The notes below the pieces were generated by a model. That model saw nothing but the letters and a program-made list of their open reading frames with translations, did not search any database and was not told where the DNA came from. Both the position numbers and the translations under genes were made by a program. Shown one piece after another: positions 9,114 through 50,066 of a DNA stretch of 64,000 nt; the first letter of the stretch is position 1; each line of letters begins with the position of its first letter. The stretch is taken from assembly GCA_964507615.1 (NCBI GenBank), contig CAZDPS010000001.1, positions 25,777-89,776 of the forward strand, in the 5' to 3' direction. The stretch is from an uncultured Candidatus Saccharibacteria bacterium (GTDB lineage Bacteria; Patescibacteriota; Minisyncoccia; Phycocordibacterales; DATDWN01).

Positions 9114-9205
9114 ATATAAATAAAATAGGTCTCATAAAATAACGAGCGGCCGGTCTCTACACGATAGATCCCGGCCGTTATGATATGCGCCATATGATAA
9201 TCTCC

Positions 9206-9388
9206 TCACGATGCAGCTCGGTTTTTGTCTGGCGTTTCCTGTTCCCGCCAAACAACACGTCCGCACTCTGGACAAGCCCATTTCTCCATGACTGGTCCGA
9301 TACCAGTCAAGAAAGGTACGGGTTTGCCGTTGCGATCGAGCACACGCTCGAACTCCACATCACACTTTATGCAATTTTTCTTGTCCAT
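9206..9388 (-). CDS. Small zinc-ribbon protein (60 aa), GC-rich island 1
   Basis: CIKC...CPEC pair; strong SD (aggagaggagg) 6 nt upstream of ATG; hairpin cggccgg/ccggccg (9147-9177) downstream; GC visibly above flanks. Confidence 0.6.
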   Translation of the reverse strand: MDKKNCIKCDVEFERVLDRNGKPVPFLTGIGPVMEKWACPECGRVVWREQETPDKNRAAS

Positions 9389-9436
9389 GGCACACCTCCT
9401 CTCCTAAAACAATTATACATTAAATAACAAACAGCT

Positions 9437-9685
9437 TCACCTTTTGGGTGAAGCTGTCCTAAGAAAAGAAAGATCAATGGACGAGACCTGCTCCTCCACA
9501 ACGACTTCCACGAGATTGAAGCCTGAACACTCTTCTGGATTCGGGAGGCTATCGATGTGGCGCCGAACTACCGCCTCCATCAATCTTTCTGAGTTAGCCT
9601 TGAACTCAAACTTCCCCACGACAAACTTCAGTGGAGAAAGAGAGTGAACAGTCCTAACCCAAGTAAGTCTGTACCTATGAACCAT
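9437..9685 (-). CDS. Hypothetical protein (82 aa), GC-rich island 1
   Basis: SD ggaggtg 4 nt before ATG; stop embedded in hairpin acagcttcacc/ggtgaagctgt followed by a T-rich tract. Confidence 0.55.
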   Translation of the reverse strand: MVHRYRLTWVRTVHSLSPLKFVVGKFEFKANSERLMEAVVRRHIDSLPNPEECSGFNLVEVVVEEQVSSIDLSFLRTASPKR

Positions 9686-9737
9686 GTAACACCTCCAAAT
9701 GGAACTCTACCAAAAACTTATTCTTATAACAACAATA

Positions 9738-10643
9738 TTATTTACACCCACTCGTTGGCTCTCTCACTTTTTTATTTTTCAATATAAATTCTTTTCCGTC
9801 TGACTGAAAATTTATTTGACCCATATTACACGTAACAAGAGTCTTTAATTTTTGTTTATCCAATATTTCTAGAACCTCTTTGTTTGGATGACTGTACATA
9901 TTATTTGTCCCGGCTGATATGACCACCCACTCTGGAGAAACAGCTTTTACATATTCCTCGCTTGAAGATGTTTTTGAACCATGATGTCCCGCCTTTAGAA
10001 TAGAACTTGTCATTTTCTCCGCGCCCAAACCCAGAAGATAGTGCTCTATATTAGACGTGGAATCCCCTTGGAGCAAAACACTTGTCTCACCATAAACAAG
10101 TTTCATTACTATGGAACCATCATTTGGAGAAAGCCCCGAGACATCACGGTCCGGAAAAAATATTTCCAAATACGCTCCCCCACCCAAGTCTATTATCTGA
10201 CCGCGCCTCGCTATTATTTTTGGAATCTTTTTATCCTTAATTTCGTTTTCCAAAACTCCATATGCACTATTTTTATTCGTTGTTCCTGGTTCAAGAACCA
10301 CATCAGTTTTAAATCTTTTTAAAAGAGCGATGAATCCTTCATAGTGATCCTTGTCTGGGTTTGTAACCACAAGCATATCTATATGCCTGTCGTACCAAGG
10401 TAAAACTTTAGAAATTTCTTTCATTAGATTGTTGTTTGGACCTCCGTCTACCAAAACCTGCATACCAGTTGGCGACTCTATAAAAATAGAATCTCCCTGA
10501 CCTATATCAAGAAAACTCACAGTCAAAATACCATCACGATCTTCACGAATTACTACAAACCACAATGTTAAACTAACTAAAAGGAGAATCCCGAGCACAT
10601 ACCATCTCAAGTAAGCACGGATATGAGATAGAATCCTTAACAT
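9738..10643 (-). CDS. ComEC/Rec2-related metallo-beta-lactamase-fold protein
   Basis: N-terminal TM, then DIGQGDS, NPDKDHYEG, KAGHHGSKTSS motifs typical of the ComEC C-terminal MBL domain. Confidence 0.8.
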   Translation of the reverse strand: MLRILSHIRAYLRWYVLGILLLVSLTLWFVVIREDRDGILTVSFLDIGQGDSIFIESPTGMQVLVDGGPNNNLMKEISKVLPWYDRHIDMLVVTNPDKDHYEGFIALLKRFKTDVVLEPGTTNKNSAYGVLENEIKDKKIPKIIARRGQIIDLGGGAYLEIFFPDRDVSGLSPNDGSIVMKLVYGETSVLLQGDSTSNIEHYLLGLGAEKMTSSILKAGHHGSKTSSSEEYVKAVSPEWVVISAGTNNMYSHPNKEVLEILDKQKLKTLVTCNMGQINFQSDGKEFILKNKKVREPTSGCK

Positions 10644-10686
10644 ATGATATATTATACACACAAATTAAGAACCAAAATATAAAAAC

Positions 10687-11301
10687 ATGAAACCATTTGA
10701 AGAAAAAAAATTTAACCTGCCTACCGGACAGGCAGGTATTAGTGAACTAAAAGGAATATCGGCCAAAACAATTGAGGAGCATTTGAAGCTTTATTCTGGA
10801 TATGTAAAAAACTTAAACAACATCTTTACACAAATCGGCGAACTAATGTCTGACCCAACTAAAAACGCATTTCTTATAGGAGAACTACATCGACGCACTG
10901 GTTTTGAATTCAACGGCATGAGAAATCATGAAGTTTACTTTGATTTACTTGAGGGTGGCTCTCAACCACTTCCAGAAAACTCTAAATTTAAAAAACAAAT
11001 GGAAACCCAAGCACCGTCTGTTGAAGCAGCGCTGGGAGGATTTAAAACTCTTGCAATGACTCGTGGTATCGGCTGGGCAATACTTTACTGGGACAAAGAG
11101 TCAGGACAACTAATTGCAACATGGGTTGATGAACAACACCTAGGACAACTTCAAGGATGCACACCAATCATCGCTCTAGACATGTGGGAACACTCATACG
11201 TTGCCGACTACCAACCAAGTGGAAAGAAACAATACGTAGAAGACTTCTTCAGCAATTTAAACTGGAGCAAAGTTGAAGAAAATTTTAATAGTGTTGTGTA
11301 A
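10687..11301 (+). CDS. Fe/Mn superoxide dismutase family protein
   Basis: C-terminal IIALDMWEHSYVADYQ matches the D-x-W-E-H-x-Y motif; N-terminal His motifs are divergent. Confidence 0.75.
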   Translation: MKPFEEKKFNLPTGQAGISELKGISAKTIEEHLKLYSGYVKNLNNIFTQIGELMSDPTKNAFLIGELHRRTGFEFNGMRNHEVYFDLLEGGSQPLPENSKFKKQMETQAPSVEAALGGFKTLAMTRGIGWAILYWDKESGQLIATWVDEQHLGQLQGCTPIIALDMWEHSYVADYQPSGKKQYVEDFFSNLNWSKVEENFNSVV

Positions 11302-11306
11302 AACTT

Positions 11307-11633
11307 TTAGAGCCAAGCTGCAAACATAAGCAGAATCCACAAAAGCAAAAATAAGACAAAACTAGTTAAACCTAATACCACAAAAACAACCCACAAAGTT
11401 TTTTTGACCACCTCTAACCCTGTGTGGCCTTTTTTTCTGAGAAATAAATATACAATTAAACCTAGAATAAAAATTATAGGCCAGATAATTCCTGCAAGTT
11501 CATCGTCCCACAAAATACTAAACATACTTCTAGAATTAGGTCCCCAACTCCCAACCAAAGCATCTACACCAAAACCCATCAATAAGAAACCCGCAATTGA
11601 ACAAATAGTCAAAATTTTATTTTTTTTGGTCAT
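11307..11633 (-). CDS. Small polytopic membrane protein (108 aa)
   Basis: Three or four hydrophobic helices; overlaps the comEC-like stop by a few codons. Confidence 0.5.
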   Translation of the reverse strand: MTKKNKILTICSIAGFLLMGFGVDALVGSWGPNSRSMFSILWDDELAGIIWPIIFILGLIVYLFLRKKGHTGLEVVKKTLWVVFVVLGLTSFVLFLLLWILLMFAAWL

Positions 11634-13089
11634 GTAAATATTTTAACATGAAAATAAGAGCTAAATAAACCATAATTAAAACCCCAAAAGAAAATGCTGG
11701 TAGGTTTAGTGCACCAAACGGAATACTTGCTCCGATGTGAACTACTGTGAGCTGATACCACAGAAGAATGTAGGTAAAAAATGCCGGAATAAAAGAAAGA
11801 TAAAGAGAAAATAATCCCAGAACGCCGGTGATAAACCCCAAAAACATTGTTAGTGGTATGGTACCCAAAATCAAAACGTTCACAGGTAGAGAAACCAGAG
11901 ATAGTATTCCCATATTGTAAATAAGGTATGGCAAAACTGTAATCTGGGTAGCTATGGTAGAAGAAACTATTTCTTGTAGACCAAACCTTTCGGTTATCCA
12001 AGATAAATATGGTGTTACGTGAGGAGTAACAAATATTAATCCAATTGTTGCCAGAACAGAAAGTTGAAAGGAAGGATCAAAGGCAAGTAGAAGCGGATTC
12101 GGAGCGAGCATCAAGACAATAGTAAAACCAAAGACTCTACTGGCTTTGTAATCCCTATTAAATTTTTTAGCAAACAAGGCAACCAAAACCATAATGGCTG
12201 CCCTCCAGGCACTAGCCCCTCCCCCAGAAAGAATAGTAAACAAAATTATACTAACGGCTCCAAAACCGAAAGACATATTCTTTGGTAAAAATTTAAAAAC
12301 CGCCATTATACTACTGGCCACAATAGCAATGTTGTACCCAGACAAAACAACAATATGAGAAACTCCTGTTTTTTGAAACTCTGTAAGTAGTTCTTTGCCT
12401 AAACTCTGTTTTGTGCCAAGAAGAAGTCCCGCAAGTAAACTGGACTCCGGTTCTGGCAGTGCGTCGCGAATAGAGTCTGTAAATTTTCTTTTTGTTTTAA
12501 AGAGAAGTGTCTTCACTAAACTACCATGACCACTTGATACAAATTCAACGTTTGTAAAACGACTTGTATACCACACACCTCGCACACGAAGATATCCCTT
12601 ATAATCAAAAATTCTTCCATTGGTTTCAAATTCCCCCGGCTCCTCTAGCACAACTTTCGCCCTGACCTTGTCTCCATAAGAAAACTCTGGATATATGGGA
12701 ACTGTCACTAATATTTTCTCTTTAATAGGAATAGTAGTGGTGCCACTCAACACACTTCTCACTCCAACAGTCAGTTTTGTATTAGTTTCTCTCACATCTG
12801 GCTCACCGACAATGATTCCTTCTATATTTATTTGCTTTCCAACATACTCATCTAGTTTGGAATCACTATATAAATCAGAAATCATAATCCTTCCAACCCC
12901 ACACAAAACTCCGAGCACAATAAACAAAGCGATATTTAAAATTTTGTGGCTGTTTTCATCCACAAAATATCTGTACACAAAAAATACAACAGTTAAGAAA
13001 ACAAGAGCAACAAAAAATCCGACGTTAATCGGAAAAATTGAACCCAGTGCTATGCCCCCTATAAATCCTAGAATAATAGAGAGGGCCAT
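11617..13089 (-). CDS. comEC: ComEC/Rec2 competence channel, membrane domains
   Basis: 490-aa polytopic ORF with an OB-like N-terminal region and competence-domain helices (GVSHIVVLSGYNIAIV...). Confidence 0.8.
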   Translation of the reverse strand: MALSIILGFIGGIALGSIFPINVGFFVALVFLTVVFFVYRYFVDENSHKILNIALFIVLGVLCGVGRIMISDLYSDSKLDEYVGKQINIEGIIVGEPDVRETNTKLTVGVRSVLSGTTTIPIKEKILVTVPIYPEFSYGDKVRAKVVLEEPGEFETNGRIFDYKGYLRVRGVWYTSRFTNVEFVSSGHGSLVKTLLFKTKRKFTDSIRDALPEPESSLLAGLLLGTKQSLGKELLTEFQKTGVSHIVVLSGYNIAIVASSIMAVFKFLPKNMSFGFGAVSIILFTILSGGGASAWRAAIMVLVALFAKKFNRDYKASRVFGFTIVLMLAPNPLLLAFDPSFQLSVLATIGLIFVTPHVTPYLSWITERFGLQEIVSSTIATQITVLPYLIYNMGILSLVSLPVNVLILGTIPLTMFLGFITGVLGLFSLYLSFIPAFFTYILLWYQLTVVHIGASIPFGALNLPAFSFGVLIMVYLALIFMLKYLHDQKK

Positions 13090-13094
13090 AATAT

Positions 13095-13556
13095 TTAATA
13101 CCCGGCTGGTGGCACTGTTTTCTTACCCAGCATACTTAAATTCATATTTTTTAACTCTTTATCTATTTTGAAAACAAACTTCTCTAATTTCTTCACCTCT
13201 TTTTCTGTCTTTGTAGAAAGTACGTACTCCAATGCTTTATCAAAGTCATTTTTAAATTTTTGGTTTATATCTTTCCATTTCACTCCTTTTAAAATATTTC
13301 CCACCTCATTTGAATATTCAAGAACTCCTTTCTTCATTAAAAAAGCTATGGACGGATACCCCAAATAACCTTTCCAAAAAGATGCGTTGTCATTTGACAT
13401 TACGGCATTCAATTCTGGATCATATTTTATTTCGTAAAACTTATTACCACTTGATGAAAAAACTTTACCACCTAAATCAGAAGTTTCGACTCTTCCATCA
13501 GCCACCGCACCCAGAGCTTCATAAATTTTTGTTATTGGTGGGTGTTTCCATTTCAT
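13095..13556 (-). CDS. Hypothetical protein (153 aa)
   Basis: Clean ORF, 2 nt from rnhA stop; no family recognised. Confidence 0.6.
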   Translation of the reverse strand: MKWKHPPITKIYEALGAVADGRVETSDLGGKVFSSSGNKFYEIKYDPELNAVMSNDNASFWKGYLGYPSIAFLMKKGVLEYSNEVGNILKGVKWKDINQKFKNDFDKALEYVLSTKTEKEVKKLEKFVFKIDKELKNMNLSMLGKKTVPPAGY

Positions 13557-13557
13557 A

Positions 13558-14232
13558 TTACTCTTTAAATTCTTTTATTATTTCTTCTTCATCAGCAGGA
13601 GAAGTAGATTTTTTATAACGGGCCCCAGAAACTCCATTCACCCGGGCTTTGCAGTCATCCCAAGTTTTGTGAACTTTTATTTCTCCGTCTACCATACTTA
13701 TATAAGAATAGGCTTTGCTTTTACTTTTTGTTTTACTCTTTGAATCTTTTGATTCTTTAATAGAAACATCAATACCATATCTTTCTTTGGAACCGTTATA
13801 CAAAACAACAGGCATTTTATCGGCAAAAGACGTAGCGATCACATCACACCTTTCGTTGCCTGCCGTGCCAGAATGCCCTTTTATTAATTTCCAATCAATT
13901 ATTTTGTGAGAAGTTAATTCAATTAATCTCTCCCACAAATCCTTATTTAAAACGTTCTCCTTTTGTGAAGTCTTCCATTTATTTTTCTTCCAACCTTTGA
14001 CCCAACGGGTTGCACCGTTCAGAACATAAGCTGAATCAGTATATATGGTCATCTCCCTCTCAGACGAAACCGACTCCAAGGCAGATATAACGGCTGTGAG
14101 TTCCATACGATTGTTTGTCGTGTGATCTTCTCTACCACCAAGTTCCATGGCTGAATCATCCGTAATAACAATAGCACCCCATCCGCCAGGACCAGGATTG
14201 CCTCTCGCGCTACCATCTGTAAAAATAATCAT
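13558..14232 (-). CDS. rnhA: Ribonuclease HI with C-terminal hybrid-binding (viroplasmin-like) domain
   Basis: MIIFTDGSARGNPGPGGWGAIV...TNNRMELTAV...; C-terminus YSYISMVDGEIKVHKTWDDCKARVNGVSGARYKKSTSPADEEEIIKEF resembles the RNase H1 HBD. Confidence 0.9.
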   Translation of the reverse strand: MIIFTDGSARGNPGPGGWGAIVITDDSAMELGGREDHTTNNRMELTAVISALESVSSEREMTIYTDSAYVLNGATRWVKGWKKNKWKTSQKENVLNKDLWERLIELTSHKIIDWKLIKGHSGTAGNERCDVIATSFADKMPVVLYNGSKERYGIDVSIKESKDSKSKTKSKSKAYSYISMVDGEIKVHKTWDDCKARVNGVSGARYKKSTSPADEEEIIKEFKE

Positions 14233-14291
14233 TTTTCTATTATAACAAAAACAAATAAAATAACTCTATCTACATTTGCCTTATAAGAAAA

Positions 14292-14324
14292 AGGTGGTGG
14301 TTGCCCGAGAGCTAACCACCACCT
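14292..14324 (-). terminator. Intrinsic terminator of GC-rich island 2
   Basis: Perfect 11-bp stem aggtggtggtt/aaccaccacct followed on the minus strand by tttttctt. Confidence 0.75.
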
Positions 14325-14344
14325 ACCGACGTTCTTGTGGGAGG

Positions 14345-14560
14345 TCACCGACGACGAGCTGCTATCATCTTCCCCAAACCGTCGATCAGCTCGGCCAACG
14401 CTAAGCCCAAACCCACCAAGAACGCGAGCTCACCCGTGAGTGGAATGACTGTAGCATCCAGTACGGGAATACCAAGTAGGTCGATGGGCCAGGACAATAG
14501 TCCAATCCCAGCCAGAACCAGCACGGTCGGCAGTAGTAACCGGAACAGCAACTTGATCAT
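14345..14560 (-). CDS. Small hydrophobic protein (71 aa), GC-rich island 2
   Basis: MIKLLFRLLLPTVLVLAGIGLLSWP...GELAFLVGLGLALAELI...AARRR (two predicted TM helices); SD aaggagg 5 nt before ATG; own promoter TTGACT-17-TATAAT (14605-14577). Confidence 0.6.
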   Translation of the reverse strand: MIKLLFRLLLPTVLVLAGIGLLSWPIDLLGIPVLDATVIPLTGELAFLVGLGLALAELIDGLGKMIAARRR

Positions 14561-14576
14561 GTGACCTCCTTTTATT

Positions 14577-14605
14577 ATTATAGTACAATAAAAAATATAA
14601 GTCAA
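14577..14605 (-). promoter_or_regulatory. Sigma70-like promoter for the 71-aa ORF
   Basis: Minus strand TTGACT (14605-14600), 17 nt, TATAAT (14582-14577). Confidence 0.6.
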
Positions 14606-14615
14606 GTCACATATA

Positions 14616-15019
14616 CAAAAAGGGCCCGCGTTGCAAGCAACGGGGCCCTGGTCTGAGAGAATCCGCAAATCCTCTCAATGGACCTGTTAGTCGAGTGATC
14701 GGCTCACTCTGTGCCACCGGGGACCTACCCCCCGGCTAGGACTCAGTTCTTCATTCACACTCCTTGATGAATTTGGAACCACGCGAGTCTTGGATTACCA
14801 CTTAACCAACCCGATACGGGCGTCAGCGTTCCGGCTCAACCATCACCCATTTGCCCCTTCTGGAGCTATGGACCTGATTCGACTTCGCTTTTTTGGAATG
14901 ACCATCAAGTGGTCAGACGCGTAGGCGGTCATCGAGATATTGGTCCTTATTGTTTGGGGACGGCCTTATTTGCCTTTCCGAAGGGTTTTGTGACAAACCT
15001 CTCTCGCTTTTATTTAACT
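14616..15019 (-). ncRNA. Candidate structured ncRNA of about 400 nt (unclassified), GC-rich island 2
   Basis: Bounded by promoter TTGACA-17-TATACT (15054-15026) and terminator hairpin 14621-14649 plus U-tract; no ORF longer than about 30 codons; many short GC-rich hairpins (ccgggg/ccccgg, gagtga/tcactc, tgacca/tggtca, tgagag/ctctca). Confidence 0.5.
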
Positions 15020-15025
15020 GTGTTA

Positions 15026-15054
15026 AGTATAGCACAGCACCATGTTTCTGTCAA
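15026..15054 (-). promoter_or_regulatory. Sigma70-like promoter of the island 2 ncRNA
   Basis: aatcgcTTGACA-17 nt-TATACT; the -35 box starts 5 nt after the recJ stop; flank homologous to the island 6 promoter. Confidence 0.6.
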
Positions 15055-15058
15055 GCGA

Positions 15059-16795
15059 TTAAAATATATCCACTATTCGGAGGCGAAGTTCGGGAAAATT
15101 ACGAAATTGTGATTTTTCAAGAGTTGCCACCAAGTTTATGCTGTCCCCCACACCTAGAGGCACAGTAAATTTGTCTGGAGTTGAAAAAAATGCGATAGCT
15201 GTGACATCCGAGTTTTTAGAATTTTTAAATTTCAATTCCAAATGATTTTGTTCTTTGCCAAAAAGTTTTACATTACTTATTTTTATATTTTCAAAAAGGA
15301 AAAGTGGTTTCGGATTATCTAAACCAAAAGGAGCGAACCTCTCTATTAGTCTATATGTATCCCAACTGACTTCATCCAAGGATAATTTTTTATCGAGTAG
15401 TGTATCTTCTGTCACTTTATTCTCTTTCATCATTTCCAAGAAAGCCTCGTTCAGCCTATCTTCCAAAGTGTGAATGTTTTCCTGCATAACAGAAAATCCA
15501 CCTGCACCTTTGTGTCCACCATAGTCCACAAAAACATCTTTCACTTTTTCCATAAGAGAAACAACATCAGTGTCTCCACCGGCACGACATGAACCTTTTA
15601 TTATTGCGCTTCCATTACTTCCTTCCCTTCCCCAGAAAAAAACAGGGCGATTGTGTTCATCAGAGAAACTATTTGCCACGAGTCCTAATAGACTTGGCTT
15701 CCATTCTGGATTTCCAAAAACCAAAACGTGTTTCATTGTTTCGTCACGATCTGCAATTTTTTTCTTGATTTCTTTTACCATACTTCCCACCACACCTTTT
15801 CTCTCGTCATTTTTATTATTCAAATGCTCAGCCAAAACTCCAGCTGACACTTCATCCGTAGTAGACATCAGAGAAAACGCGTCATGAGGAATACCCATTC
15901 TAGATGCTGCATTGATACGAGGGGTGATCATGAAAGCAATGTCATCCTCTGTTGCTGTTTGTTGGTTTATTTTAAGTAATGAAAAAAGTTTCTGCAGTCC
16001 AACTCGTGGACTTTTCTGCAAAACTTTTAATCCGTAAAAAGACAGGACTCTGTTCTCCCCAACGAGCGGTACCATATCAGAAAGAGTAGCGAGCCCCACC
16101 ATATCAAGCAACCACTTCTCCCAACCAACCGGAATCGTGGTTGCAATTTCTAATTTCAAATTTCTAATTTCTAAAATCAATGCTTGTACAACTTTAAAAA
16201 TAACCCCGGCACCGCATAACATTTTTTCTGGATAATCACATCCTTTTTGTTTTGGATTTATTATGGCAAATGCTTTTGGTAATTTCTTACCCGGTATATG
16301 ATGGTCAGTGATTACTACATCAATACCAAAACTATTGGCCAGATCAACTTGTGTAACATCAGTAATTCCACAATCAATAGTAATGATTAGTTTCACATTT
16401 TGAGAATTTAAATTCTCTATCGCTTCGTCATTCAAACCAAAACCCTCTTCGTTACGTAGCGGAATATAATTTACAAAATTATTGAAATTTATTTTTTTAA
16501 AGAAGTCGTGCAAAACAACAGCACCTGGAATTCCATCCGCATCATAATCACTATATATTCCAATTTTTTCATCCTTCTCGATTGCCTTCAAAATTCTATC
16601 CACAACCTTTTTCATATCCTTCAAAAGATAAGGGTCGTGAAGATGTAACAAATAATCAGGGTTGAGAAACTGTTCAGAACCCTCTACATCACTTATTCCC
16701 CGAGCACATAACATAGACCTTACAAGCGGATGATAAGGTTTCAAAGTCTCATCAACGTTCTGTGTAACAGGATTTCGTAAGGCGTATTTTTTCAT
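15059..16795 (-). CDS. recJ: Single-stranded-DNA-specific exonuclease RecJ
   Basis: DHH family motifs (IYSDYDADGIPG, ITIDCG, VVITDHHIPG); start trimmed to MKKYALRNP... Confidence 0.85.
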   Translation of the reverse strand: MKKYALRNPVTQNVDETLKPYHPLVRSMLCARGISDVEGSEQFLNPDYLLHLHDPYLLKDMKKVVDRILKAIEKDEKIGIYSDYDADGIPGAVVLHDFFKKINFNNFVNYIPLRNEEGFGLNDEAIENLNSQNVKLIITIDCGITDVTQVDLANSFGIDVVITDHHIPGKKLPKAFAIINPKQKGCDYPEKMLCGAGVIFKVVQALILEIRNLKLEIATTIPVGWEKWLLDMVGLATLSDMVPLVGENRVLSFYGLKVLQKSPRVGLQKLFSLLKINQQTATEDDIAFMITPRINAASRMGIPHDAFSLMSTTDEVSAGVLAEHLNNKNDERKGVVGSMVKEIKKKIADRDETMKHVLVFGNPEWKPSLLGLVANSFSDEHNRPVFFWGREGSNGSAIIKGSCRAGGDTDVVSLMEKVKDVFVDYGGHKGAGGFSVMQENIHTLEDRLNEAFLEMMKENKVTEDTLLDKKLSLDEVSWDTYRLIERFAPFGLDNPKPLFLFENIKISNVKLFGKEQNHLELKFKNSKNSDVTAIAFFSTPDKFTVPLGVGDSINLVATLEKSQFRNFPELRLRIVDIF

Positions 16796-16856
16796 TTCAT
16801 TAGTGTAACACACTAATATAGACATAAATAACAACAAATATGATAAAATATTGTCT

Positions 16857-17282
16857 ATGGAAAACTGTATATTTTGCAAAATAGTGAAAGGAGATCTTCC
16901 TTCACATCGGGTTTATGAGGATGATAATTTTTTAGCATTTCTAGATATCAATCCTGAGTCTCCCGGACACACTTTAGTTATACCGAAAGAACACTACCGC
17001 TGGGTTTGGGACCTGCCCGCTATGCCTGAGCAAAGCGACGGCAGGCAGGTGTCACCAAATATTGGGGATTATTTTAGAGTGGCCCAGAAAATTGCACTAG
17101 CACAGAAGAAAGCTTTCAACACCGACTTGGTTATTTCTAGAGTTGTTGGAGAAGAAGTTCATCATGCCCATATCTGGGTATTCCCTGCTTCTTTCAACAG
17201 AGGAGAGTTTGAAAAAACAGCGGGTGACAAAAAAGACTTCGCCGGAAATGCAGAAAAAATAAAAAAGGAATTAGAAAACTAA
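16857..17282 (+). CDS. HIT-family (histidine triad) protein
   Basis: MENCIFCKIVKGDLPSHRVYEDD...; HHAHIWVFP histidine triad. Confidence 0.9.
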   Translation: MENCIFCKIVKGDLPSHRVYEDDNFLAFLDINPESPGHTLVIPKEHYRWVWDLPAMPEQSDGRQVSPNIGDYFRVAQKIALAQKKAFNTDLVISRVVGEEVHHAHIWVFPASFNRGEFEKTAGDKKDFAGNAEKIKKELEN

Positions 17283-18037
17283 ATTGACTCAACTAGTTTT
17301 ATTATTTCAATAAAATCTTTTGCTCTTAAACTTTCTCGTCCAACTAGGAGGCCCGAAACATTTCCATCACGAACAAGCGAGTCTGCGTTGACCCTATCAA
17401 CATCTCCTCCATAAAGAATTTTCATACTGTCTGAAAAATTTCCACACAAATCTTTCAAAACTTTTTTAATAAAAATAGAAGTCTCAAGTAGGTCCCTTGG
17501 GCTCATGGACTCCCTCGCTCCGATAGCCCACAAAGGTTCGTAAGCAATAATAACTTTGTCTAACATTTTTTTTGGAACATCTTTGAGTCCAGATGTGATT
17601 TGCTGTTTTATGAAATTATAAAAATCCCCATTTTGATCTCTCGTCTCCTCCCCTACACAAAGTATGGCCGTCATACCGCCACCCACCACTGCTCTAACTT
17701 TTTTATTTATCAGCTCATCACTCTCTCCCATTTTTCTTCTCTCTGAATGTCCTACAATCACATAGTCAACTTTGAAATCTGATAGCTCGGTGTAACTCAC
17801 TTCACCTGTGAAAGGTCCTTGTGATTCATAACTAACATTTTGAGCACCAAGAAAGAAATGAGTATCTGAAAGAGAAGTTAAGGGTGACAAAAAAACAAAT
17901 GGAGGACAGATGACCACATCTGTTTTTTTTAATTCTCGTGTTCCTCTCTTTACACTCTGCGCTAGTTTTTTTGCTTCATCCAAACTTTGTGGGTTCATTT
18001 TCCAATTTCCCACAACAAGCTTTTTAGATTTTTTCAT
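17279..18037 (-). CDS. tpiA: Triosephosphate isomerase
   Basis: VVGNWKMN, VGHSERR, AYEPLWAIG motifs; start trimmed to MKKSKKLVVGNWKMN. Confidence 0.9.
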   Translation of the reverse strand: MKKSKKLVVGNWKMNPQSLDEAKKLAQSVKRGTRELKKTDVVICPPFVFLSPLTSLSDTHFFLGAQNVSYESQGPFTGEVSYTELSDFKVDYVIVGHSERRKMGESDELINKKVRAVVGGGMTAILCVGEETRDQNGDFYNFIKQQITSGLKDVPKKMLDKVIIAYEPLWAIGARESMSPRDLLETSIFIKKVLKDLCGNFSDSMKILYGGDVDRVNADSLVRDGNVSGLLVGRESLRAKDFIEIIKLVESI

Positions 18038-18063
18038 AGATATAATTGTACCACAGCAGTTTC

Positions 18064-18149
18064 TATACGAAAAAACCCGATACAGAGAATCTGTATCGAG
18101 TGTGCAGGTAGGGCGCACCGAAGCGCCCTACCTTGAATGTGCTACCTGC
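18064..18149 (-). terminator. Tandem-hairpin terminator module of island 3 (shared with island 4)
   Basis: Hairpins aggtagggcgc/gcgccctacct (18106-18133) and cgatacag/ctgtatcg (18078-18098) followed by tttttt on the minus strand; first 41 nt identical to 24663-24703. Confidence 0.75.
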
Positions 18150-18160
18150 CCGCTCAGGAA

Positions 18161-18850
18161 CTAGCAGGCGGGCTTGCTTGCGACTTCTTCCGTCGCGAAG
18201 GCGGCTGGGGTCAGTTGCGGGAGAACGAAGCGACGCCCGTAGCCACCGTACCAGACGTAGGCGTCGGACAGCCGGCGAGCTTGGACGTCAAGGCCATCAG
18301 GGTGGACGCTCACGCCCGCAACGAAGAACCCGTTGCCCTCCTTCAGGAGAAAGAAGGTCCCGTAGCCGTCTTTGCGGAGCCAGCCCCGATGAGTCTCCAC
18401 GAAGGAGATCACTTGGTCCTGGGTCAGGACCAACTTGTCTAGATCTGCGCCGAGACTGTTGTAGATGTCGGTGAAGTCGCCATCGCGAACGAGCTCATGG
18501 ACTTCGACGTCCGTGTCGGGAGTTGCCACCCCCTCCACATCCAAGCCGTAGTTCACGAAGTCGCGGTCGATGTAACCCCGAAACACCTTGTCGACCTTGG
18601 CGATCGTTCGCTGGCCGGAGCATTCGGAGATGGTGAGCTTCGTCCCACCCAAGATGAGGCGGAGGTAGGGTTGAATTGTGAAGATCGGCTTTGGCTTCGG
18701 CACAATGTCCGCCTCGCCATCGAGGTAGGTCTTGACCATCCGAAGACGACCACCTTGACCGAGCAGGGTCACCTGTGACGGAGTGAACCCGTCTTCCTCT
18801 AGGCGATCCGACAACCACTTCATTTGATCGATTGTGTAGAGTGAGGACAT
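18161..18850 (-). CDS. Hypothetical protein (229 aa), GC-rich island 3
   Basis: Only frame with normal amino-acid composition in the GC-rich block; start taken at MSSLYTIDQMKW; C-terminus AYVWYGGYGRRFVLPQ resembles the island 4 protein. Confidence 0.65.
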   Translation of the reverse strand: MSSLYTIDQMKWLSDRLEEDGFTPSQVTLLGQGGRLRMVKTYLDGEADIVPKPKPIFTIQPYLRLILGGTKLTISECSGQRTIAKVDKVFRGYIDRDFVNYGLDVEGVATPDTDVEVHELVRDGDFTDIYNSLGADLDKLVLTQDQVISFVETHRGWLRKDGYGTFFLLKEGNGFFVAGVSVHPDGLDVQARRLSDAYVWYGGYGRRFVLPQLTPAAFATEEVASKPAC

Positions 18851-18981
18851 CGTCCTACCCTTTCTGGCACATCGTGCCAATGCTGGCCCAGCCCATGCTT
18901 TGCCACAGCAGAGAAAGCCCTGTTTTAGGACACTTTCTGTTGTGGCAAATGCAAGTAGTATTTTAAAGAACTATTTCCAGA

Positions 18982-19010
18982 ATTAAATACCTAAAACCAC
19001 CATGCGTCAA
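18982..19010 (-). promoter_or_regulatory. Sigma70-like promoter of island 3
   Basis: TTGACG (19010-19005), 17 nt, TTTAAT (18987-18982); followed by a 5' UTR of about 130 nt with inverted repeat tttgccacaacagaaag/ctttctctgctgtggcaaa. Confidence 0.5.
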
Positions 19011-19040
19011 TACATAAGTCCAGTCTATGTATTCCATAAA

Positions 19041-19189
19041 CTTTCATAATTTGGATGAAATCCCTAGGGCTTTCAGATTTGAGACAAGGTCGCGTATAAA
19101 ATAAAAAACAATTCCGGAGGTGTACATGTCGTACATTGAGGAAATTGTTTTTTATTTTAGACGATGAGATTGGCCAAATGTGGAAGCCC
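19041..19189 (+). repeat. Family A palindromic repeat, copy A2
   Basis: gagacaaggtcgcgtataaaat...ggaggtgtac-atgtc-gtacattgagg...attttagacgatgagattggccaaat; outer stem gggcttt/gaagccc abuts the stop of the PilX-like gene. Confidence 0.7.
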
Positions 19190-20658
19190 TACCTCACTTC
19201 GTCCCAGGAGACGATTTGATACTGATCGCTAGTCAGTGGAAAACTCGGAGGCGGACCATACAACAAATTTGCATCGTATATAATATTTCTAGTGTTATAA
19301 CCGGTACCATCTGTATAGGCAAAACCATAACGAATATTCGTCCCTATCATTCCATATAAGGTTATTGAGTTTCTGTCATAACCAGTACCACAATCAGATT
19401 CGTAGTAATATCTTCCAACACGACCGTTCTGTGCTATAAGCGCAGCATCAATTCGTAAATCGTTGAGACTGCCCAAACCTGCATTTATATTTCCCTGTGC
19501 TATGAGGGCCAAAACATCTTGACCATCATAATTTGTATATAACAAATTATTATTCACTGTTATTGATGGTCTAGTACTTGCGTTATCTGGAAATCTACCG
19601 GCTGCCAAAGTAACGCGAGCTGTATTTATTTGGCCTTCAACCCAAACGTTGTCTTCAACAAAAATAAGTCCATTAGCTGTTATTGGGTAGTTGCCGATGA
19701 AAGTCTGATTTCCACTGCCCGTTGTTCTTATTGTCCATGTCCCCCAACCTGTCTGACCAGAAACAGCACTACATCCCGATGGTGGAGACATGAGATTGTT
19801 AACTCTGTAAACATCAAAAGTATCGTTTACTTTTAGAACAATCCTATAACCAGAAGCTCCTGAGCTTGATAGATATTTACCACTTGCCTGGGCATCGCTT
19901 TTTATTTGAGCCAAATCTGTGGTCAAACCAACAAAATCGATCGCAGGAACAGGAAAAGACCGGCCAATCATAAAAACATCTGCACGACTCGCCACACCAC
20001 TTGGAGGAGCTTCAGCAACTCTGAATGTATCATTGACACCTGTGGCTGGAGGCGGATTAACATGAGTATGAACACCAAATTCCATATTCCCTGTATGATC
20101 AGGATCATCATATCTATCTTTTGCACTTGTGATTATGTTATGGGCCAACCCATCAAAACGTATCCCTCCGTTTGAATGTATGGGTCCAAAAACTTCTGTG
20201 CCTGGACCAAAACGCATGTTATCGTTTGCTGCTATTGCATATTTGGCAAATGATGGGATAGCGAGTTGAACCACTATTGATCTAGAAACTGTGGGGTCCG
20301 ACAGAACTGTTCCGGTGGATTTTATTCTGACCAATGTAAAACCAGGAAGGGGTGGTGTAATCTCTAATGTAAAAGCACCAATTTCAATACCATCCTTATC
20401 ATAAAATGTATGTACGTAAGGACCAGGCTGTCCTGTGCCATCTTGATAGTCTGTCGAGGCATGAGCTAGGTGCCAACGATAATAGTCTATTCCCGCTTCT
20501 GCGATCTGTAGTGCTTGCTCGCGAAAAACTCCTATCCTTGATGCTTTGAGACTAACACTAGCCCAACTAATAAGGGCCCCTATCATTATTATAGAAATGA
20601 CCCCAAAGAAAAAAGCTTGGAGTAGTATAGAGCCGGATTGTAACTTTTTGCTTCTCAT
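19189..20658 (-). CDS. PilX-N-domain-like pilus assembly protein (489 aa)
   Basis: N-terminal TM then REQALQIAEAGIDYYRWHL (PilX_N-like A..AEAG motif); located in the pilus gene cluster. Confidence 0.65.
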   Translation of the reverse strand: MRSKKLQSGSILLQAFFFGVISIIMIGALISWASVSLKASRIGVFREQALQIAEAGIDYYRWHLAHASTDYQDGTGQPGPYVHTFYDKDGIEIGAFTLEITPPLPGFTLVRIKSTGTVLSDPTVSRSIVVQLAIPSFAKYAIAANDNMRFGPGTEVFGPIHSNGGIRFDGLAHNIITSAKDRYDDPDHTGNMEFGVHTHVNPPPATGVNDTFRVAEAPPSGVASRADVFMIGRSFPVPAIDFVGLTTDLAQIKSDAQASGKYLSSSGASGYRIVLKVNDTFDVYRVNNLMSPPSGCSAVSGQTGWGTWTIRTTGSGNQTFIGNYPITANGLIFVEDNVWVEGQINTARVTLAAGRFPDNASTRPSITVNNNLLYTNYDGQDVLALIAQGNINAGLGSLNDLRIDAALIAQNGRVGRYYYESDCGTGYDRNSITLYGMIGTNIRYGFAYTDGTGYNTRNIIYDANLLYGPPPSFPLTSDQYQIVSWDEVR

Positions 20659-38352: not shown

Positions 38353-38553
38353 TTTGGCACTAAATCTCTTTTTGTCATATTTTTTGAGAGCAACCTTTCG
38401 TTCGCCAGCGCTCACTCAAGGCCAGTCCTCGGCCTCTAGCTGTCAAGAACGGGATGCCTTGACAGCACCATGCTAGAGGCACTGCGGGGTCTCTCAAAAA
38501 TCATGACCTCAAAGAGATTTGATGCTAGTCCAACCGCCTCAAACCACCAAAAT

Positions 38554-38728
38554 ACAGAATTTCGTTGAAGTCGTATCTTTTTCAGAGCATCCACAGGCCT
38601 TGAGCATGGTTTCGTCAATGACCCGAGCTAAGCGAGGGCTCTTGACGAATCAAGGCCGAGGACTAGAACGAACTTTTCGCTGGAAAAGTGAGTGTATCTG
38701 AAAAAGATACGACGAAAAAGAAATTCTG
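38554..38728 (+). repeat. Family C structured repeat, copy C2
   Basis: Same P1 with tgaag bulge and the same core as C1; P2 ggccttga/tcaaggcc replaces C1 ccctcc/ggaggg. Confidence 0.7.
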
Positions 38729-38876
38729 TTACTTTTTTAAACAACTATTTTAATCCACAGTCAATATATTGCTTTAAAAAAGCCTTGTAGTATACTGCTA
38801 TTTATAGTAGATAGTTAGAACTAGCTTTTTGGTGGTTCTAAAAATAAAAAATTATTAGCGAATTTAATTAATTATT

Positions 38877-39999: not shown

Positions 40000-40794
40000 T
40001 TATACAACATAATTACCTTTATGGAGCTTTTGAAGTTCATCTGGTTTCGCATAGAACACATTCGTTCCTTGTCGGAGACAAACACGGCCCTCGTACTGAT
40101 AAATGTTTTTCCTGTTCCAAGGAGGAATAGAAATGATAATTATTTTATGTCCTATCACATCGTTTTCAGTAATTTTTACAGTTAGAGAAGGAGATATTGT
40201 GTTACGTATACTGTTTCGGAGTGATTGATCTAGTTTTTGCCTAGAAATATCTGAATTACCAATCGTGCCATCGTCTTCTACTCCATAAAATATATATCCA
40301 CCATCTTTTGTATTTGCAAAAGCACATATTTCTTTAGATAAGACTTTCATTTCCACTCCTGCTCTTTTGAACTCATAAAGTTGATCTTCGCCGTTATTTT
40401 TACATATGTCTAGTATTTCCGGCGCAGACAAAACACGCATTCCTCGAAGTGTGCCCGTCTTAAATTTTTTATTTATATCCTTGTCAGGTTTAGGTAATCT
40501 GGTTGGATCTTGAAAATATGATTCTGACAAATGTTTAAGAAGTGGGACTTTTTCATAAACTAGTGAGTTTTCTTTCTTTATGACTTTACCGTTTTCATCT
40601 TTAATAAAATCAATTAATTCAAGGTCTCTTAACATTTGGAGACCTTTAAGAGTGTTTGCTTGTGAACTGCCTGTTTTCCTAGCAATTTCCTTAGCTGAAC
40701 GCTTACCATTTATCAACTTAAAGTAAGCAGCCCTCTTTTTTGAGCCATTTATAATCAATCTTGCTCTAGATACCAGTTCTTGAAGAGTATTCAT
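40000..40794 (-). CDS. Winged-HTH plus AlbA_2/Schlafen-type domain protein
   Basis: N-terminal wHTH (KRSAKEIARKTGSSQANTLKGLQMLRDLELI); C-terminal EDQLYEFKRAG...ICAFANTKDGGYIFYGVEDDGTI typical of AlbA_2. Confidence 0.65.
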   Translation of the reverse strand: MNTLQELVSRARLIINGSKKRAAYFKLINGKRSAKEIARKTGSSQANTLKGLQMLRDLELIDFIKDENGKVIKKENSLVYEKVPLLKHLSESYFQDPTRLPKPDKDINKKFKTGTLRGMRVLSAPEILDICKNNGEDQLYEFKRAGVEMKVLSKEICAFANTKDGGYIFYGVEDDGTIGNSDISRQKLDQSLRNSIRNTISPSLTVKITENDVIGHKIIIISIPPWNRKNIYQYEGRVCLRQGTNVFYAKPDELQKLHKGNYVV

Positions 40795-47955: not shown

Positions 47956-48888
47956 TTAGTGATTTTTATTATGAAACTTTTTGTGTATATCTTTCAAGTG
48001 TTTATCCGTCACGTGTGTATATATCTGAGTGGTCACAATACTTGAGTGGCCTAAAAGAGCCTGAACTGAACGTAAATCAGCACCGTTTGAAAGCAGATCT
48101 GTAGCAAATAGGTGACGCATTGTATGCGGTGTGACTTTTTTTGAAATTCCTGCCTTTGTAGCGTGTTGTTTTACGATTCTTTCTATTGACCTTTTGTCCA
48201 AGAAGCCAAAATTTCTCGTACTGTTTTTATTAAAATTTTTAGCATCAATAGGAACAAAAAGTGCATCGCTTATATCTTTGCGAGCCTTCAAATAATCTCC
48301 AACACACTTTTTGGCATTATCAGAAAGGAAAACAACTCTAACTTTTCCACCCTTACCACGAATAGACAGTTCATCGGACTTAAGGTTTATATCGGAAGTC
48401 AGGGAACATAGTTCGGAAACACGAAGGCCGGTAGAAAATAGTAGTTCAAGAATAGCTTTGTCACGCAAATCTTTTAAGCTAGTGCTATTTGGAGAATCGA
48501 GTAGTCTCTGTAACTCTTCCTGGGTAATAAGGTCAAGCGAGCGTTCAGATGTTTTGGCCAATTCTATACGCTCTGCGGGAAGAGTTTTGATCTCTTGTCG
48601 AGCAAGATATTTTAAGAAAGCCCGAAGTGCGATGAGATAATAGTTTTGTGTTTTTTTGGATAAAGTTTCTGATTCAGCCTTTTTGTGCCCCGTCAGTTGG
48701 CGATTAAGCCATAGGCGGAACTCGCGAACAGAGGTGTCTGTTATGCTTGCAGGATTATCGTTTTTGGTAAAATCAAGAAAACGAGAGAGGTAGTGGTCGT
48801 AGTTCTCGACAGTTTTCATAGAACGGCCTTTTTCTATCTCTATATACTCCAAAAATTGTTGTTTGAGTTGTTTCAGACCTCGAGCCAT
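47956..48888 (-). CDS. Tyrosine recombinase XerC/XerD family
   Basis: SAM-like N domain; R...HTMRHLFATDLL...LLGHSSIVTTQIYTHV catalytic motifs. Confidence 0.85.
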   Translation of the reverse strand: MARGLKQLKQQFLEYIEIEKGRSMKTVENYDHYLSRFLDFTKNDNPASITDTSVREFRLWLNRQLTGHKKAESETLSKKTQNYYLIALRAFLKYLARQEIKTLPAERIELAKTSERSLDLITQEELQRLLDSPNSTSLKDLRDKAILELLFSTGLRVSELCSLTSDINLKSDELSIRGKGGKVRVVFLSDNAKKCVGDYLKARKDISDALFVPIDAKNFNKNSTRNFGFLDKRSIERIVKQHATKAGISKKVTPHTMRHLFATDLLSNGADLRSVQALLGHSSIVTTQIYTHVTDKHLKDIHKKFHNKNH

Positions 48889-49005
48889 GGGTGAATTATA
48901 TCACAAACCGTGTCGCAAAATAATTGAACCACTTAAAACGGCCGGGAATTGCCATCACAAAAGGCTCTTGCAAAGGCCTGTCTTTTGTGATATCCTGTGG
49001 GAACA

Positions 49006-49272
49006 ATGCTTACAAAGACAAAAAAATCAAAAATTGTTAAAGATGTTCAAGTGCACGCCACAGACACTGGTTCTCCAGAGGTACAAATTGCTATTTTGAC
49101 TAAAAGAATAGATGATCTGGCTTCTCACCTAAAGAAAAACACAAAAGATAACCATTCAAGACGTGGGCTACTACAAATGGTTGCTGATAGAAAATCCCAG
49201 ATGAAATATCTTGAGAAAAAATCTCCTAAAAGATATAACGCTTTAGTTAAGAAAGTTGGTTTGAAAAAATAG
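49006..49272 (+). CDS. rpsO: 30S ribosomal protein S15
   Basis: MLTKTKKSKIVKDVQVHATDTGSPEVQIAILTKRIDDLASHLKKNTKDNHSRRGLL... Confidence 0.9.
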   Translation: MLTKTKKSKIVKDVQVHATDTGSPEVQIAILTKRIDDLASHLKKNTKDNHSRRGLLQMVADRKSQMKYLEKKSPKRYNALVKKVGLKK

Positions 49273-49357
49273 TCGCCAAAAGCGATTATTTTTCTATTTT
49301 TTGATACAATTGCTTTATAGCAATAACTTTTTATTATTAATTTAAAAAAACCATTTT

Positions 49358-49897
49358 ATGTCAGTAATTAAACACAAAAACCAGCGCGTTGGTATTTTTA
49401 TAGATACACAAAACCTATACCACTGTGCAAAAAATATATACGGGGCAAAAGTAAATTTTGATCAGGTAGTAAAAGATGGTCTTGCGGGAAGACAGTTAAT
49501 ACGTGCTGTAGCTTATGTAATCACAACAGAAGCAGGTGATGAAAAGAGCTTTTTTGAGGCTCTGGAAAAAATTGGAATAGAAACAAAAACAAAAAATTTA
49601 CAGATATTTTCAGGAGGAGCTAAAAAGGGAGATTGGGATGTTGGCCTTGCGGTAGACGCCATTAAACTCGCTCCAAAACTGGATGCTGTTATTCTGGTAA
49701 CTGGTGACGGAGATTTTGTTCCTCTTGTAGAATATCTACAAGTAAATGAGGGGTGTCAAGTGGAAGTGATGTCTTTCGGAAAAGCATCTTCGGCAAAATT
49801 AATAGAAACCAGTGATGATTTTATAGACCTAGATCTGAACCCACGAAAATATCTGATAGGATTTGGTACAAACAAACGAAATCGCAGGGCTATGTAA
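49358..49897 (+). CDS. NYN-domain (LabA/DUF88-like) protein
   Basis: RVGIFIDTQNLYH...VILVTGDGDFVPLVEYLQ. Confidence 0.8.
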   Translation: MSVIKHKNQRVGIFIDTQNLYHCAKNIYGAKVNFDQVVKDGLAGRQLIRAVAYVITTEAGDEKSFFEALEKIGIETKTKNLQIFSGGAKKGDWDVGLAVDAIKLAPKLDAVILVTGDGDFVPLVEYLQVNEGCQVEVMSFGKASSAKLIETSDDFIDLDLNPRKYLIGFGTNKRNRRAM

Positions 49898-49939
49898 TAA
49901 ACAGAGAACTTGACCTAATATACTACTAGGTATACATTT

Positions 49940-50066
49940 AAGTAGCCACTAGGCATGTCGCCTGGTGGCTATCGTCGGGAAAGCGGCTGGCAACCACTCC
50001 GAGGGTGGTGTTGGAGAGCTCGACAGCCCTTTTCAACACCACCCGCAGGGGTCAAGTTCTTTTTTA
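49940..50066 (+). ncRNA. Candidate GC-rich sRNA of about 125 nt (unclassified), island 7
   Basis: TTGACC-17-TACATT at 49910-49938; hairpins tagccactagg/cctggtggcta (49943-49971) and gggtggtgtt/aacaccaccc (50003-50044); ends in T6; no ORF. Confidence 0.45.

Follow-up and report, generated by a model that had tools for sequence, protein, structure and literature searches.

The DNA considered here, a stretch of 64,000 nt from the 103-kb contig CAZDPS010000001.1 of the metagenome-assembled genome GCA_964507615.1 (hereafter the window), is a segment of the chromosome of an AT-rich bacterium of the Patescibacteria (Paceibacteria/Parcubacteria-like), and seven GC-rich blocks interrupt it. The seven blocks are real, self-contained accessory gene and RNA units. 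They are not one mobile family: two of them, blocks 3 and 4, are targets of diversity-generating retroelements (DGRs), and the five that remain are small genes and RNAs with no common relationship. The explanation that best accounts for the evidence as a whole, and that is probably correct, is that of a mixed set of autonomous accessory transcription units filling intergenic slots, among which blocks 3 and 4 would be stand-alone, remote targets of a Patescibacteria-type DGR whose reverse transcriptase (RT) and template repeat act in trans in the same genome.

Composition and reality of the seven blocks

A first-pass annotation of this DNA had described seven blocks of well over half G+C set in AT-rich flanks. 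Numbered 1 to 7 in coordinate order, they occupy the following slots (G+C fraction given last).

Block 1, 9141-9737, between the L28 and metallo-β-lactamase genes, 0.467
Block 2, 14292-15058, between the RNase H and RecJ genes, 0.510
Block 3, 18064-19010, between the TIM gene and a gene of 489 amino acids (aa) without known identity, 0.562
Block 4, 24663-25246, between the PilC and PilB genes, 0.560
Block 5, 27948-28430, between the PilB and NusA genes, 0.484
Block 6, 36168-36603, between the ClpP and RNase Y genes, 0.617
Block 7, 49905-50066, between an NYN-domain gene and a gene without known identity, 0.506

Computation confirms the contrast: the G+C of the window is 0.383, that of the blocks 0.467-0.617 and that of their 500-nt flanks 0.32-0.45. 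The wording “well over half” is right for blocks 3, 4 and 6 and too strong for the others; blocks 1, 5 and 7 deviate modestly, and tRNA genes are as extreme as block 7. The open reading frames (ORFs) of the blocks stand apart most clearly at third codon positions, where their G+C (GC3) is 0.51-0.86 versus 0.297 ± 0.035 (maximum 0.395) in 38 host genes of the window, including those for the highly expressed EF-G, S7 and S12; the z-scores of 6 to 16 uphold the claim of a codon usage unlike that of any neighboring gene. The further claim of products rich in alanine, arginine and glycine stands for arginine (8.2% versus 4.4%) and falls for alanine and glycine, which are not enriched; lysine, asparagine and isoleucine are lower. 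Ratios of nonsynonymous to synonymous differences (pN/pS) are 0.05 for c1a (measured against the relative L001) and 0.38 for c1b, both in block 1, 0.30 for c6 of block 6 and 0.19 for the core of c4 of block 4. Together with the pattern of G+C over the three codon positions (GC1, GC2 and GC3), these values of 0.05-0.38 indicate that the block ORFs are true protein genes and not GC-rich RNAs with accidental ORFs.

The neighbors of the blocks are housekeeping genes (those for L28, S12, S7, EF-G, RNase H, RecJ, TIM, PilB, PilC, NusA, trigger factor, ClpP, RNase Y and PNPase), and the description of the blocks as autonomous units lodged in the intergenic gaps between such genes is supported. All seven promoters with 17-nt spacers that had been quoted for them are present. 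Exact matches to TTGACA-17-TANNNT occur four times in the 64 kb, three of them inside blocks. In a ranking scan limited to positions 9000-28999, the top four promoter-like sites and the strongest terminator-like hairpins all lie inside blocks, and the overall number of promoter-like sites is at chance level (51 found versus 49.5 expected).

So regular a succession of promoter, Shine-Dalgarno sequence (SD), ORF and terminator, in sharp compositional contrast with the host, might be thought to betray assembly chimeras or artificial insertions. Against this, independent assemblies from different samples and pipelines (NCBI, Logan, ENA and JGI) contain the same junctions for blocks 1, 3, 4 and 6, which excludes chimerism for these four: block 1 is seen in NCBI, Logan, ENA and two JGI samples, and blocks 4, 3 and 6 in L075, L076 and L077, respectively. 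The orthologous copies have moreover diverged under purifying selection, and members of these gene families are present in dozens of genomes of Patescibacteria. An artifact is hardly credible. Contigs from NCBI and Logan also encode the block-2 protein.

Among the blocks themselves, sequence similarity exists only between blocks 3 and 4, by way of a 3′ module of ~85 nt, and the proposal of one dispersed family is not borne out. Three relatives recur in the comparisons below: L001 (GCA_964453075.1), which is syntenic with the window at ~90% nucleotide identity, L077 (~86% identity) and L072, a Paceibacterota genome (~77% identity).

Blocks 3 and 4 as targets of diversity-generating retroelements

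The two blocks are laid out as follows.

18982-19010, minus strand, promoter of c3, TTGACG-17-TTTAAT
18161-18850, minus strand, c3, a DGR variable protein of 229 aa (family 2, by family alignment), GC3 0.76
About 18211-18325, minus strand, variable region of c3
18064-18160, minus strand, 3′ module of block 3, 91-96% identical to that of block 4
18148-18173, hairpin across the stop codon of c3
18107-18132, GC-rich hairpin of block 3 with a 10-bp stem
18064-18101, minus strand, terminator hairpin of block 3, followed by TTTTTTCGTATA
25162-25302, minus strand, 5′ part of block 4, with a hairpin (25274-25288), the promoter TTGACA-17-TATGAT (25218-25246), a structured 5′ untranslated region (UTR) and an SD
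24739-25161, minus strand, c4, a DGR variable protein of 140 aa with a predicted C-type lectin fold (family 1), GC3 0.81
About 24742-24860, minus strand, variable region of c4, with allelic differences observed at 24767-24855
24663-24738, minus strand, 3′ module of block 4, with a 9-nt spacer after the stop codon, a GC-rich hairpin (24706-24729) and the terminator
24663-24700, minus strand, terminator hairpin of block 4, followed by TTTTTTCGTATA

The case is strongest for c4. A first search returned 31 homologues, and the family comprises 58 species-level genome loci, nearly all of them in Patescibacteria; in their alignment, a conserved core is followed by a C-terminus in which fixed scaffold positions alternate with hypervariable residues. 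At 24 of the 58 loci, genes for bAvd (on the opposite strand) and for an RVT_1 reverse transcriptase lie 0.5-1 kb downstream, and at the remaining 34 they are not adjacent. A template repeat of 124-140 nt is found between bAvd and RT in 17 of the RT-linked loci, and in 14-15 of these 17 the mismatches between template and variable region fall almost exclusively at template adenines (20/20, 24/24, 19/19, 22/23 and 25/27 at example loci). A Rokubacteria locus of the family (L006) has the same adenine-restricted mismatches. These loci show that the c4 family is a family of DGR targets.

The copy of c4 in the window also undergoes diversification at the population level, as a strain variant of block 4 (L075) shows. 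Over the 170 nt of the promoter and UTR the two alleles show a single mismatch, and the opening 300 nt of the ORF add few; its last 120 nt hold 18, 16 of which fall at codon positions 1-2 while a third-position C is kept. Over these last 120 nt, pN is 0.178 and pS 0.066, versus 0.022 and 0.117 in the core. Changes at the first two positions of NNC codons are the footprint expected of AAC template codons, a fit that is indirect. The AlphaFold2 model of c4 scores 96.7 for predicted local distance difference (pLDDT) and 0.91 for predicted template modeling (pTM), and its 50 top matches in the PDB are all C-type lectin domains, with probabilities up to 0.98, template modeling scores of ~0.5 and weak E-values of 0.04-0.3. 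The C-type lectin fold is the standard DGR scaffold.

The c3 family likewise aligns as a conserved core with a hypervariable C-terminus. Identity between c3 and its L076 ortholog, ~80% elsewhere, falls to ~45% over the last ~50 residues, and a homologue from Moranbacteria (P0083) is encoded directly upstream of bAvd and RVT_1, in the order target-bAvd-RT. In another genome (L063), a c4-type and a c3-type gene are neighbors, and a 5′ module of 159 nt, present in duplicate, precedes both. The model of c3 (pLDDT 86) has the same order of C-terminal secondary-structure elements as c4. Neither c3 nor c4 carries a signal peptide.

What blocks 3 and 4 have in common at the nucleotide level begins at their last coding bases. 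In block 4, a GC-rich hairpin with a 10-bp stem and a 4-nt loop begins 9 nt past the stop codon of c4, and its pairing is kept through compensatory changes among the copies of c3, c4, L001 and L076. Experiments with the DGR of a Bordetella phage established that efficient retrohoming depends on a GC-rich hairpin of 7-10 bp, located 4-34 bp past the variable repeat, and such hairpins are widespread (PMC3240598). The hairpins of c3 and c4 agree with the published stem length and distance; their loops (CTCG or TTCGGT) differ from the phage consensus GRNA. By analogy, the GC-rich hairpin of blocks 3 and 4 would act as the target-recognition element of a DGR.

Patescibacteria possess a DGR clade of their own whose targets have no known domains, and remote DGR targets escape surveys (PMC8144416). 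In the mechanism that we propose, an RT and its Avd partner, encoded elsewhere in the genome, would copy the RNA of a template repeat into cDNA with misincorporation at template adenines, and this cDNA would replace the last ~100-130 nt of the target ORF, thereby rewriting NNC codons on what is predicted to be the ligand-binding face of a small protein of C-type lectin fold. The sequence shared by the two blocks around and after the stop codon (last coding bases, short spacer and 10-bp GC hairpin) would be the element by which the target is recognized, and the intrinsic terminator would come after it.

Several observations weigh against this reading or against parts of it. Neither the window nor the ~6 kb past its right end gave a tblastn match to a family RT or to bAvd, the window yielded no template repeat, and two pattern scans of metagenomes for the 3′ end of a variable or template repeat and for the terminator module returned 0 matches. 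The comparison of the c3 model with the PDB gave no C-type lectin or other fold match, and the c3 and c4 profiles are weakly related (hhalign probability 40%, E = 3e-4). In the core of the target genes, outside the variable region, A is depleted to the same extent as T. No function has been assigned to five of the blocks, and blocks 5 and 7 are without support from an independent assembly. With neither RT, Avd nor template repeat in the window, c3 and c4 are best regarded as remote targets, and the genome would presumably hold their cognate DGR at another place.

Turnover of units between relatives

Beyond their variable regions, blocks 3 and 4 differ between relatives as entire units. At the TIM-side slot, where the window has c3, L001 has a complete c4-type unit and L072 has an empty site; at the PilB/PilC slot, where the window has c4, L072 has a c3-type gene together with a third GC-rich gene (60-63%) at L072:4545-5201. 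The C-terminus of the 218-aa product of the latter (…FATFRRWHGGRR…LLVVR…) is similar to a DGR variable region and hints at a further family of targets. The 5′ part of block 4 moves with its gene, as it is found again at a different locus in L001. Blocks 2, 3 and 5 vary between relatives (the c2 gene of block 2 is missing from L001 and block 5 from L072), and to that extent the first-pass description of the blocks is supported, with empty sites of the kind that it had proposed to look for. Blocks 1 and 6 are at the same loci in relatives and under purifying selection; such conservation of place, which the first-pass annotation had itself named as a sign of old genes, argues against recent insertion.

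Units are gained, lost and swapped among a few slots, and the way in which this happens bears on whether the blocks form one mobile cassette family with a dedicated site-specific mechanism, served by the tyrosine recombinase nearby or by an integron-like system. The presence of a complete c4-type unit, from upstream hairpin to terminator, at two different loci in two relatives speaks for such a family, as does the exchange of c3- and c4-type units between the TIM and PilB/PilC slots. The 11-mer TTTTTCGTATA, found in terminator tails, could be a common end: it has four exact copies versus 0.09 expected, three of them in blocks 3, 4 and 7. The gene at 47956-48888, ~1 kb from block 7, could supply the enzyme, and the statement that no integrase accompanies the blocks has to be corrected on its account. 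However, blocks 1, 2, 5, 6 and 7 have no common ends or repeats, and comparison of the filled and empty c2 junctions (window and L001) revealed no target-site duplication, as had been noted for the blocks generally. The segment replaced in the TIM slot has conserved host sequence at one end and the shared DGR 3′ module at the other, as would be expected of homologous recombination. Integron cassettes resemble the blocks in being single-gene units with structured 3′ ends, different genes of which occupy the same position; the blocks differ in being dispersed, not arrayed, each with its own promoter, and in the want of an attC-like site across them, blocks 3 and 4 alone sharing a 3′ element. The window has no integron integrase or attI, and its sole tyrosine recombinase is not adjacent to an array. 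A dedicated cassette system is accordingly improbable.

The recombinase gene (47956-48888, minus strand) encodes a phage-integrase catalytic domain and an N-terminal SAM-like domain. This N-terminal domain and the housekeeping context suggest an Xer-like housekeeping enzyme, a reading that draws on Pfam domains.

Clean replacement between conserved flanks fits homologous recombination, and no new insertion mechanism, such as the first-pass annotation had invoked, is required. We consider homologous recombination, acting through conserved flanks and shared end modules, to be the simplest and most likely way in which the units move. Both ComEC and type IV pili are encoded in these genomes.

The copies of TTTTTCGTATA lie at 18064-18074, 24663-24673, 50114-50124 and, within a gene, 6921-6931. 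The first three are the T-tails of the terminators of blocks 3, 4 and 7, and the RNA in the block-2b slot of L001 ends likewise. The 11-mer may be a shared junction between a terminator and the next promoter, or a recombination-prone end. The PilB-NusA spacer upstream of block 5 (27497-27930) contains a split small gene, which we take by eye to be DUF1653-like, with an N-terminal fragment that ends at ~27565, a C-terminal fragment at ~27770-27925 and unrelated sequence between them; in L072 the same spacer holds an unrelated gene of 137 aa.

Origin and cause of the high G+C

Recent import of all seven blocks from a high-GC donor, whether a host bacterium or its phage, would explain their composition as one that has not yet drifted toward that of the genome. 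The GC3 excess of 6-16 standard deviations over host genes is what such an origin would leave, and the rise in arginine with the fall in lysine, asparagine and isoleucine is like that of high-GC proteomes; c5 and c6 are near-ORFans, c2 and c5 are patchy among relatives, and one c4 homologue lies in a conjugative-element-like region of a Rokubacteria contig of 65% G+C. The nearest relatives of c3 and c4 (57-88% identity), however, are from Patescibacteria, as are almost all named homologues, and the avd and RT genes co-located with the targets in RT-linked loci are AT-rich. Scans of viral contigs with c4, c6, c3 and c1a found no relatives, and a tblastn search of phages with c6 found nothing. 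The restriction of close relatives to Patescibacteria, the AT-rich avd and RT and the empty phage searches together argue against recent capture of blocks 3 and 4. For blocks 1 and 6, the argument against it is that c1 and c6 are syntenic in relatives and keep their G+C unchanged at pS values of up to 0.41. The promoters and UTRs of the units are, in addition, AT-rich. The proposed high-GC donor is therefore unlikely.

Comparison of 50 loci of the c4 family shows where the G+C resides. Mean G+C rises from 0.43 in the flanks through 0.51 in the gene core to 0.585 in the variable region, and the gene is richer than its flanks in 44 of the 50. The G+C of the core follows that of the host with an offset (r = 0.62), and that of the variable region is uncorrelated with it (r = 0.15). 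Where a full element is found in an AT-rich genome, only the target gene is GC-rich, avd and RT being at the host level. Adenine makes up 14% of the variable region on average (reported range 9-14%), and such poverty in adenine is expected if invariant positions of the template must avoid it. Avoidance of adenine was rejected as the full cause, since it covers the variable region only and the depletion of A and T in the core is symmetrical. Translational selection, or expression level, was rejected as the cause of the high GC3, the genes for EF-G, S7 and S12 having values of 0.27-0.33. The enrichment of the non-variable parts is explained neither by expression level nor by adenine avoidance.

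A broader view would have a pool of GC-rich plug-in cassettes (DGR targets, small proteins and RNAs) swap among a small set of fixed slots while its G+C is actively maintained instead of being left over from transfer. This is conceivable, and we hold it to be doubtful; within it, the high G+C might stem from a GC-biased process linked to recombination, or from selection on the way in which the cassettes are mobilized or expressed.

Other Patescibacteria loci (L056, L034, L051 and L053) carry extra short GC-rich islands with high-GC3 ORFs that are unrelated to c3 and c4, for example at L056 1306-2058 and 14932-15402 and at L034 5058-5582. GC-rich accessory genes may be a general trait of Patescibacteria genomes.

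Blocks 1, 2, 5, 6 and 7

The remaining five blocks contain the following features.

9437-9685, minus strand, c1b, a protein of 82 aa without a family match (block 1), GC3 0.52
9206-9388, minus strand, c1a, a CxxC...CxxC zinc-ribbon-like protein of 60 aa (block 1), GC3 0.51
9147-9177, terminator hairpin after c1a (block 1)
14293-14605, minus strand, c2 cassette (block 2), with the promoter TTGACT-17-TATAAT (14577-14605), an SD and a terminator (14293-14323)
14345-14560, minus strand, c2, a hydrophobic protein of 71 aa, 97-99% conserved in other assemblies
14618-15054, minus strand, block 2b, an ORF-free unit of ~400 nt, with the promoter TTGACA-17-TATACT (15026-15054) and a terminator (14622-14648)
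27948-28272, plus strand, c5 cassette (block 5), with the promoter TTGATT-17-AATAAT (27948-27976), a strong SD and a terminator (28242-28272)
28000-28212, plus strand, c5, a Cys/His-rich protein of 70 aa, GC3 0.59
28285-28420, plus strand, block 5b, with a long hairpin (28285-28359), the promoter TTGACA-18-TATGAT (28355-28384) and a leader with a terminator (28397-28416)
36168-36594, minus strand, c6 cassette (block 6), with the promoter TTGACA-17-TAGGAT (36566-36594), a 5′ UTR, an SD and a terminator (36168-36199)
36233-36505, minus strand, c6, a CxxC...H...C protein of 90 aa, GC3 0.86
49910-50124, plus strand, block 7, with the promoter TTGACC-17-TACATT (49910-49938) and an RNA of ~125 nt
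49942-49972 and 50003-50044, hairpins of the block-7 RNA, which also has a T-run
50089-50112, second hairpin of block 7, followed by TTTTTTCGTATA

Block 1 is 94-98% conserved at the L28/β-lactamase locus in five independent assemblies, c1b being 95% identical, and L077 has c6 at the corresponding ClpP/RNase Y locus, 80% identical in amino acids and of equal G+C (55-66%); only 6 relatives of c6 were found among 1.8 billion representative proteins. Family searches with c1a gave sub-threshold zinc-ribbon matches only, and the comparison of the small block proteins with Pfam, PHROGs, PADLOC and NCBIfam yielded only noise of the same kind. As judged from their cysteine motifs and conservation, blocks 1 and 6 are putative zinc-ribbon-type small genes, lineage-restricted, under purifying selection and vertically maintained.

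Blocks 2 and 5 are strain-variable small-protein genes. In L001 the whole c2 unit is missing and the site is empty. For c5, no family match was found, no homologue occurs among the loci compared, the exact protein is absent from the protein collection, and L072 has no counterpart. Block 5 had been described as a cassette throughout, which is probably not so: the segment at 28355-28426, directly upstream of nusA, shows 80% conservation in L072, where gene identity is ~77%, and block 5b is most likely the host promoter of nusA with a short terminated leader. The idea that all blocks are DGR targets was rejected, the variants of c1, c2 and c6 showing no clustered C-terminal variation.

Blocks 2b and 7 are, by their predicted folding, unclassified structured small RNAs. 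The former is moderately structured, with no ORF of more than 40 aa and a fold z-score of -4.0, and the two-hairpin RNA of block 7 a z-score of -6.5. In L001 the same promoter and the first ~40 nt of block 2b drive a different GC-rich RNA of ~290 nt. Across the window, only four tRNAs reach the gathering score of Rfam 15; at E≤1-5 there is no meaningful match in 14560-15080, 28200-28640, 49880-50150 or the RNA counterpart of L001, and blocks 2b, 4b, 5b and 7 stay unmatched at permissive thresholds. Short motif resemblances seen by eye had led to block 2b being considered as RNase P RNA; this was rejected, since no Rfam model matched at E≤1 and the body of the RNA is not conserved in the 90%-identical relative.

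GC-rich structured noncoding RNAs in AT-rich genomes are the basis of GC-based intergenic RNA discovery. Blocks 2b and 7 conform to that type in being ORF-free, GC-rich and intergenic, with predicted structure and their own promoter and terminator; they depart from it in matching no Rfam family and, for 2b, in the lack of conservation just described, and most of the blocks are protein-coding.

Relation to known systems

Blocks 3 and 4 are a new instance of a known system, the remote targets of the Patescibacteria clade of DGRs; the other blocks are accessory units that resemble morons. The features shared with DGR targets are a C-terminal variable region on a conserved scaffold (with a C-type lectin fold in c4), family members that adjoin bAvd, template repeat and RT with adenine-only mismatches, a GC-rich hairpin a few bases past the variable region, and allelic differences in c4 confined to codon positions 1-2 of NNC codons. 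Unlike known DGR targets, c3 and c4 have no RT, Avd or template repeat beside them in the window, are each packaged as a promoter-to-terminator unit of their own, and belong to types of unit that are exchanged among a few intergenic slots between close relatives; moreover, the whole gene, beyond its variable region too, is much richer in G+C than the genome and than avd and RT, which we did not find stated in the literature searched.

Phage morons are independent promoter-gene-terminator units placed between conserved genes (PMC3594210). The blocks are like them in being autonomous transcription units, with sequence-predicted, near-consensus σ70-type promoters and strong factor-independent terminators (hairpin plus T-run), that are inserted between genes adjacent in some relatives, deviate in composition and encode small accessory proteins. 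Unlike morons, they lie among the housekeeping genes of a cellular chromosome, not in a phage or prophage, the searches gave no viral relatives, and two of the units (blocks 1 and 6) occupy the same place from one relative to the next.

Composition alone led here to two remote DGR targets, which family context and strain-level diversification confirmed. GC contrast combined with a post-stop hairpin is a possible handle for cataloguing the hypervariable surface or ligand-binding repertoire of Patescibacteria. If the view of a pool with maintained G+C were true, scanning for GC contrast would serve generally to detect remote DGR targets, along with other accessory units, in these reduced genomes. 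Both the target genes and several small accessory genes unrelated to them remain far richer in G+C than the genome and the DGR enzymes, even across diverged relatives, and this maintained contrast and the shuffling of slots are the features that deserve attention.

Additional elements in the window

A highly structured element of ~190 nt has two copies in the same orientation, at 25325-25512, just 3′ of pilB beside block 4, and at 38547-38736, 3′ of the RNase Y gene, and further copies at L075:1508-1693 and L077:2765-2952. From the four copies RNAalifold predicts 54 pairs, and compensatory changes are seen in 15. The z-score for a single sequence is -10.5, loop motifs are conserved, and there is no Rfam match. 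The element could be either an unclassified structured RNA or a palindromic repeat.

A repeat family of ~115 nt has copies at 7140-7270, 19070-19186 (beside block 3), 28493-28607 (directly upstream of nusA) and 55536-55596, and at L076:310-436; its motifs are GGTCGCGTATAAAAT, GGAGNCGTAC...GTACG and TTTTAGACGATGAGATT. An AT-rich direct repeat of 50 nt, 90% identical between its copies, lies upstream of pilC (24542-24591) and of pilB (27405-27454) and probably serves the pilus genes as a common promoter or operator. Finally, a gene with a Schlafen/AlbA_2 domain (40000-40794, minus strand) is located in a region with more small unannotated ORFs and tRNA genes, which may be another accessory locus.

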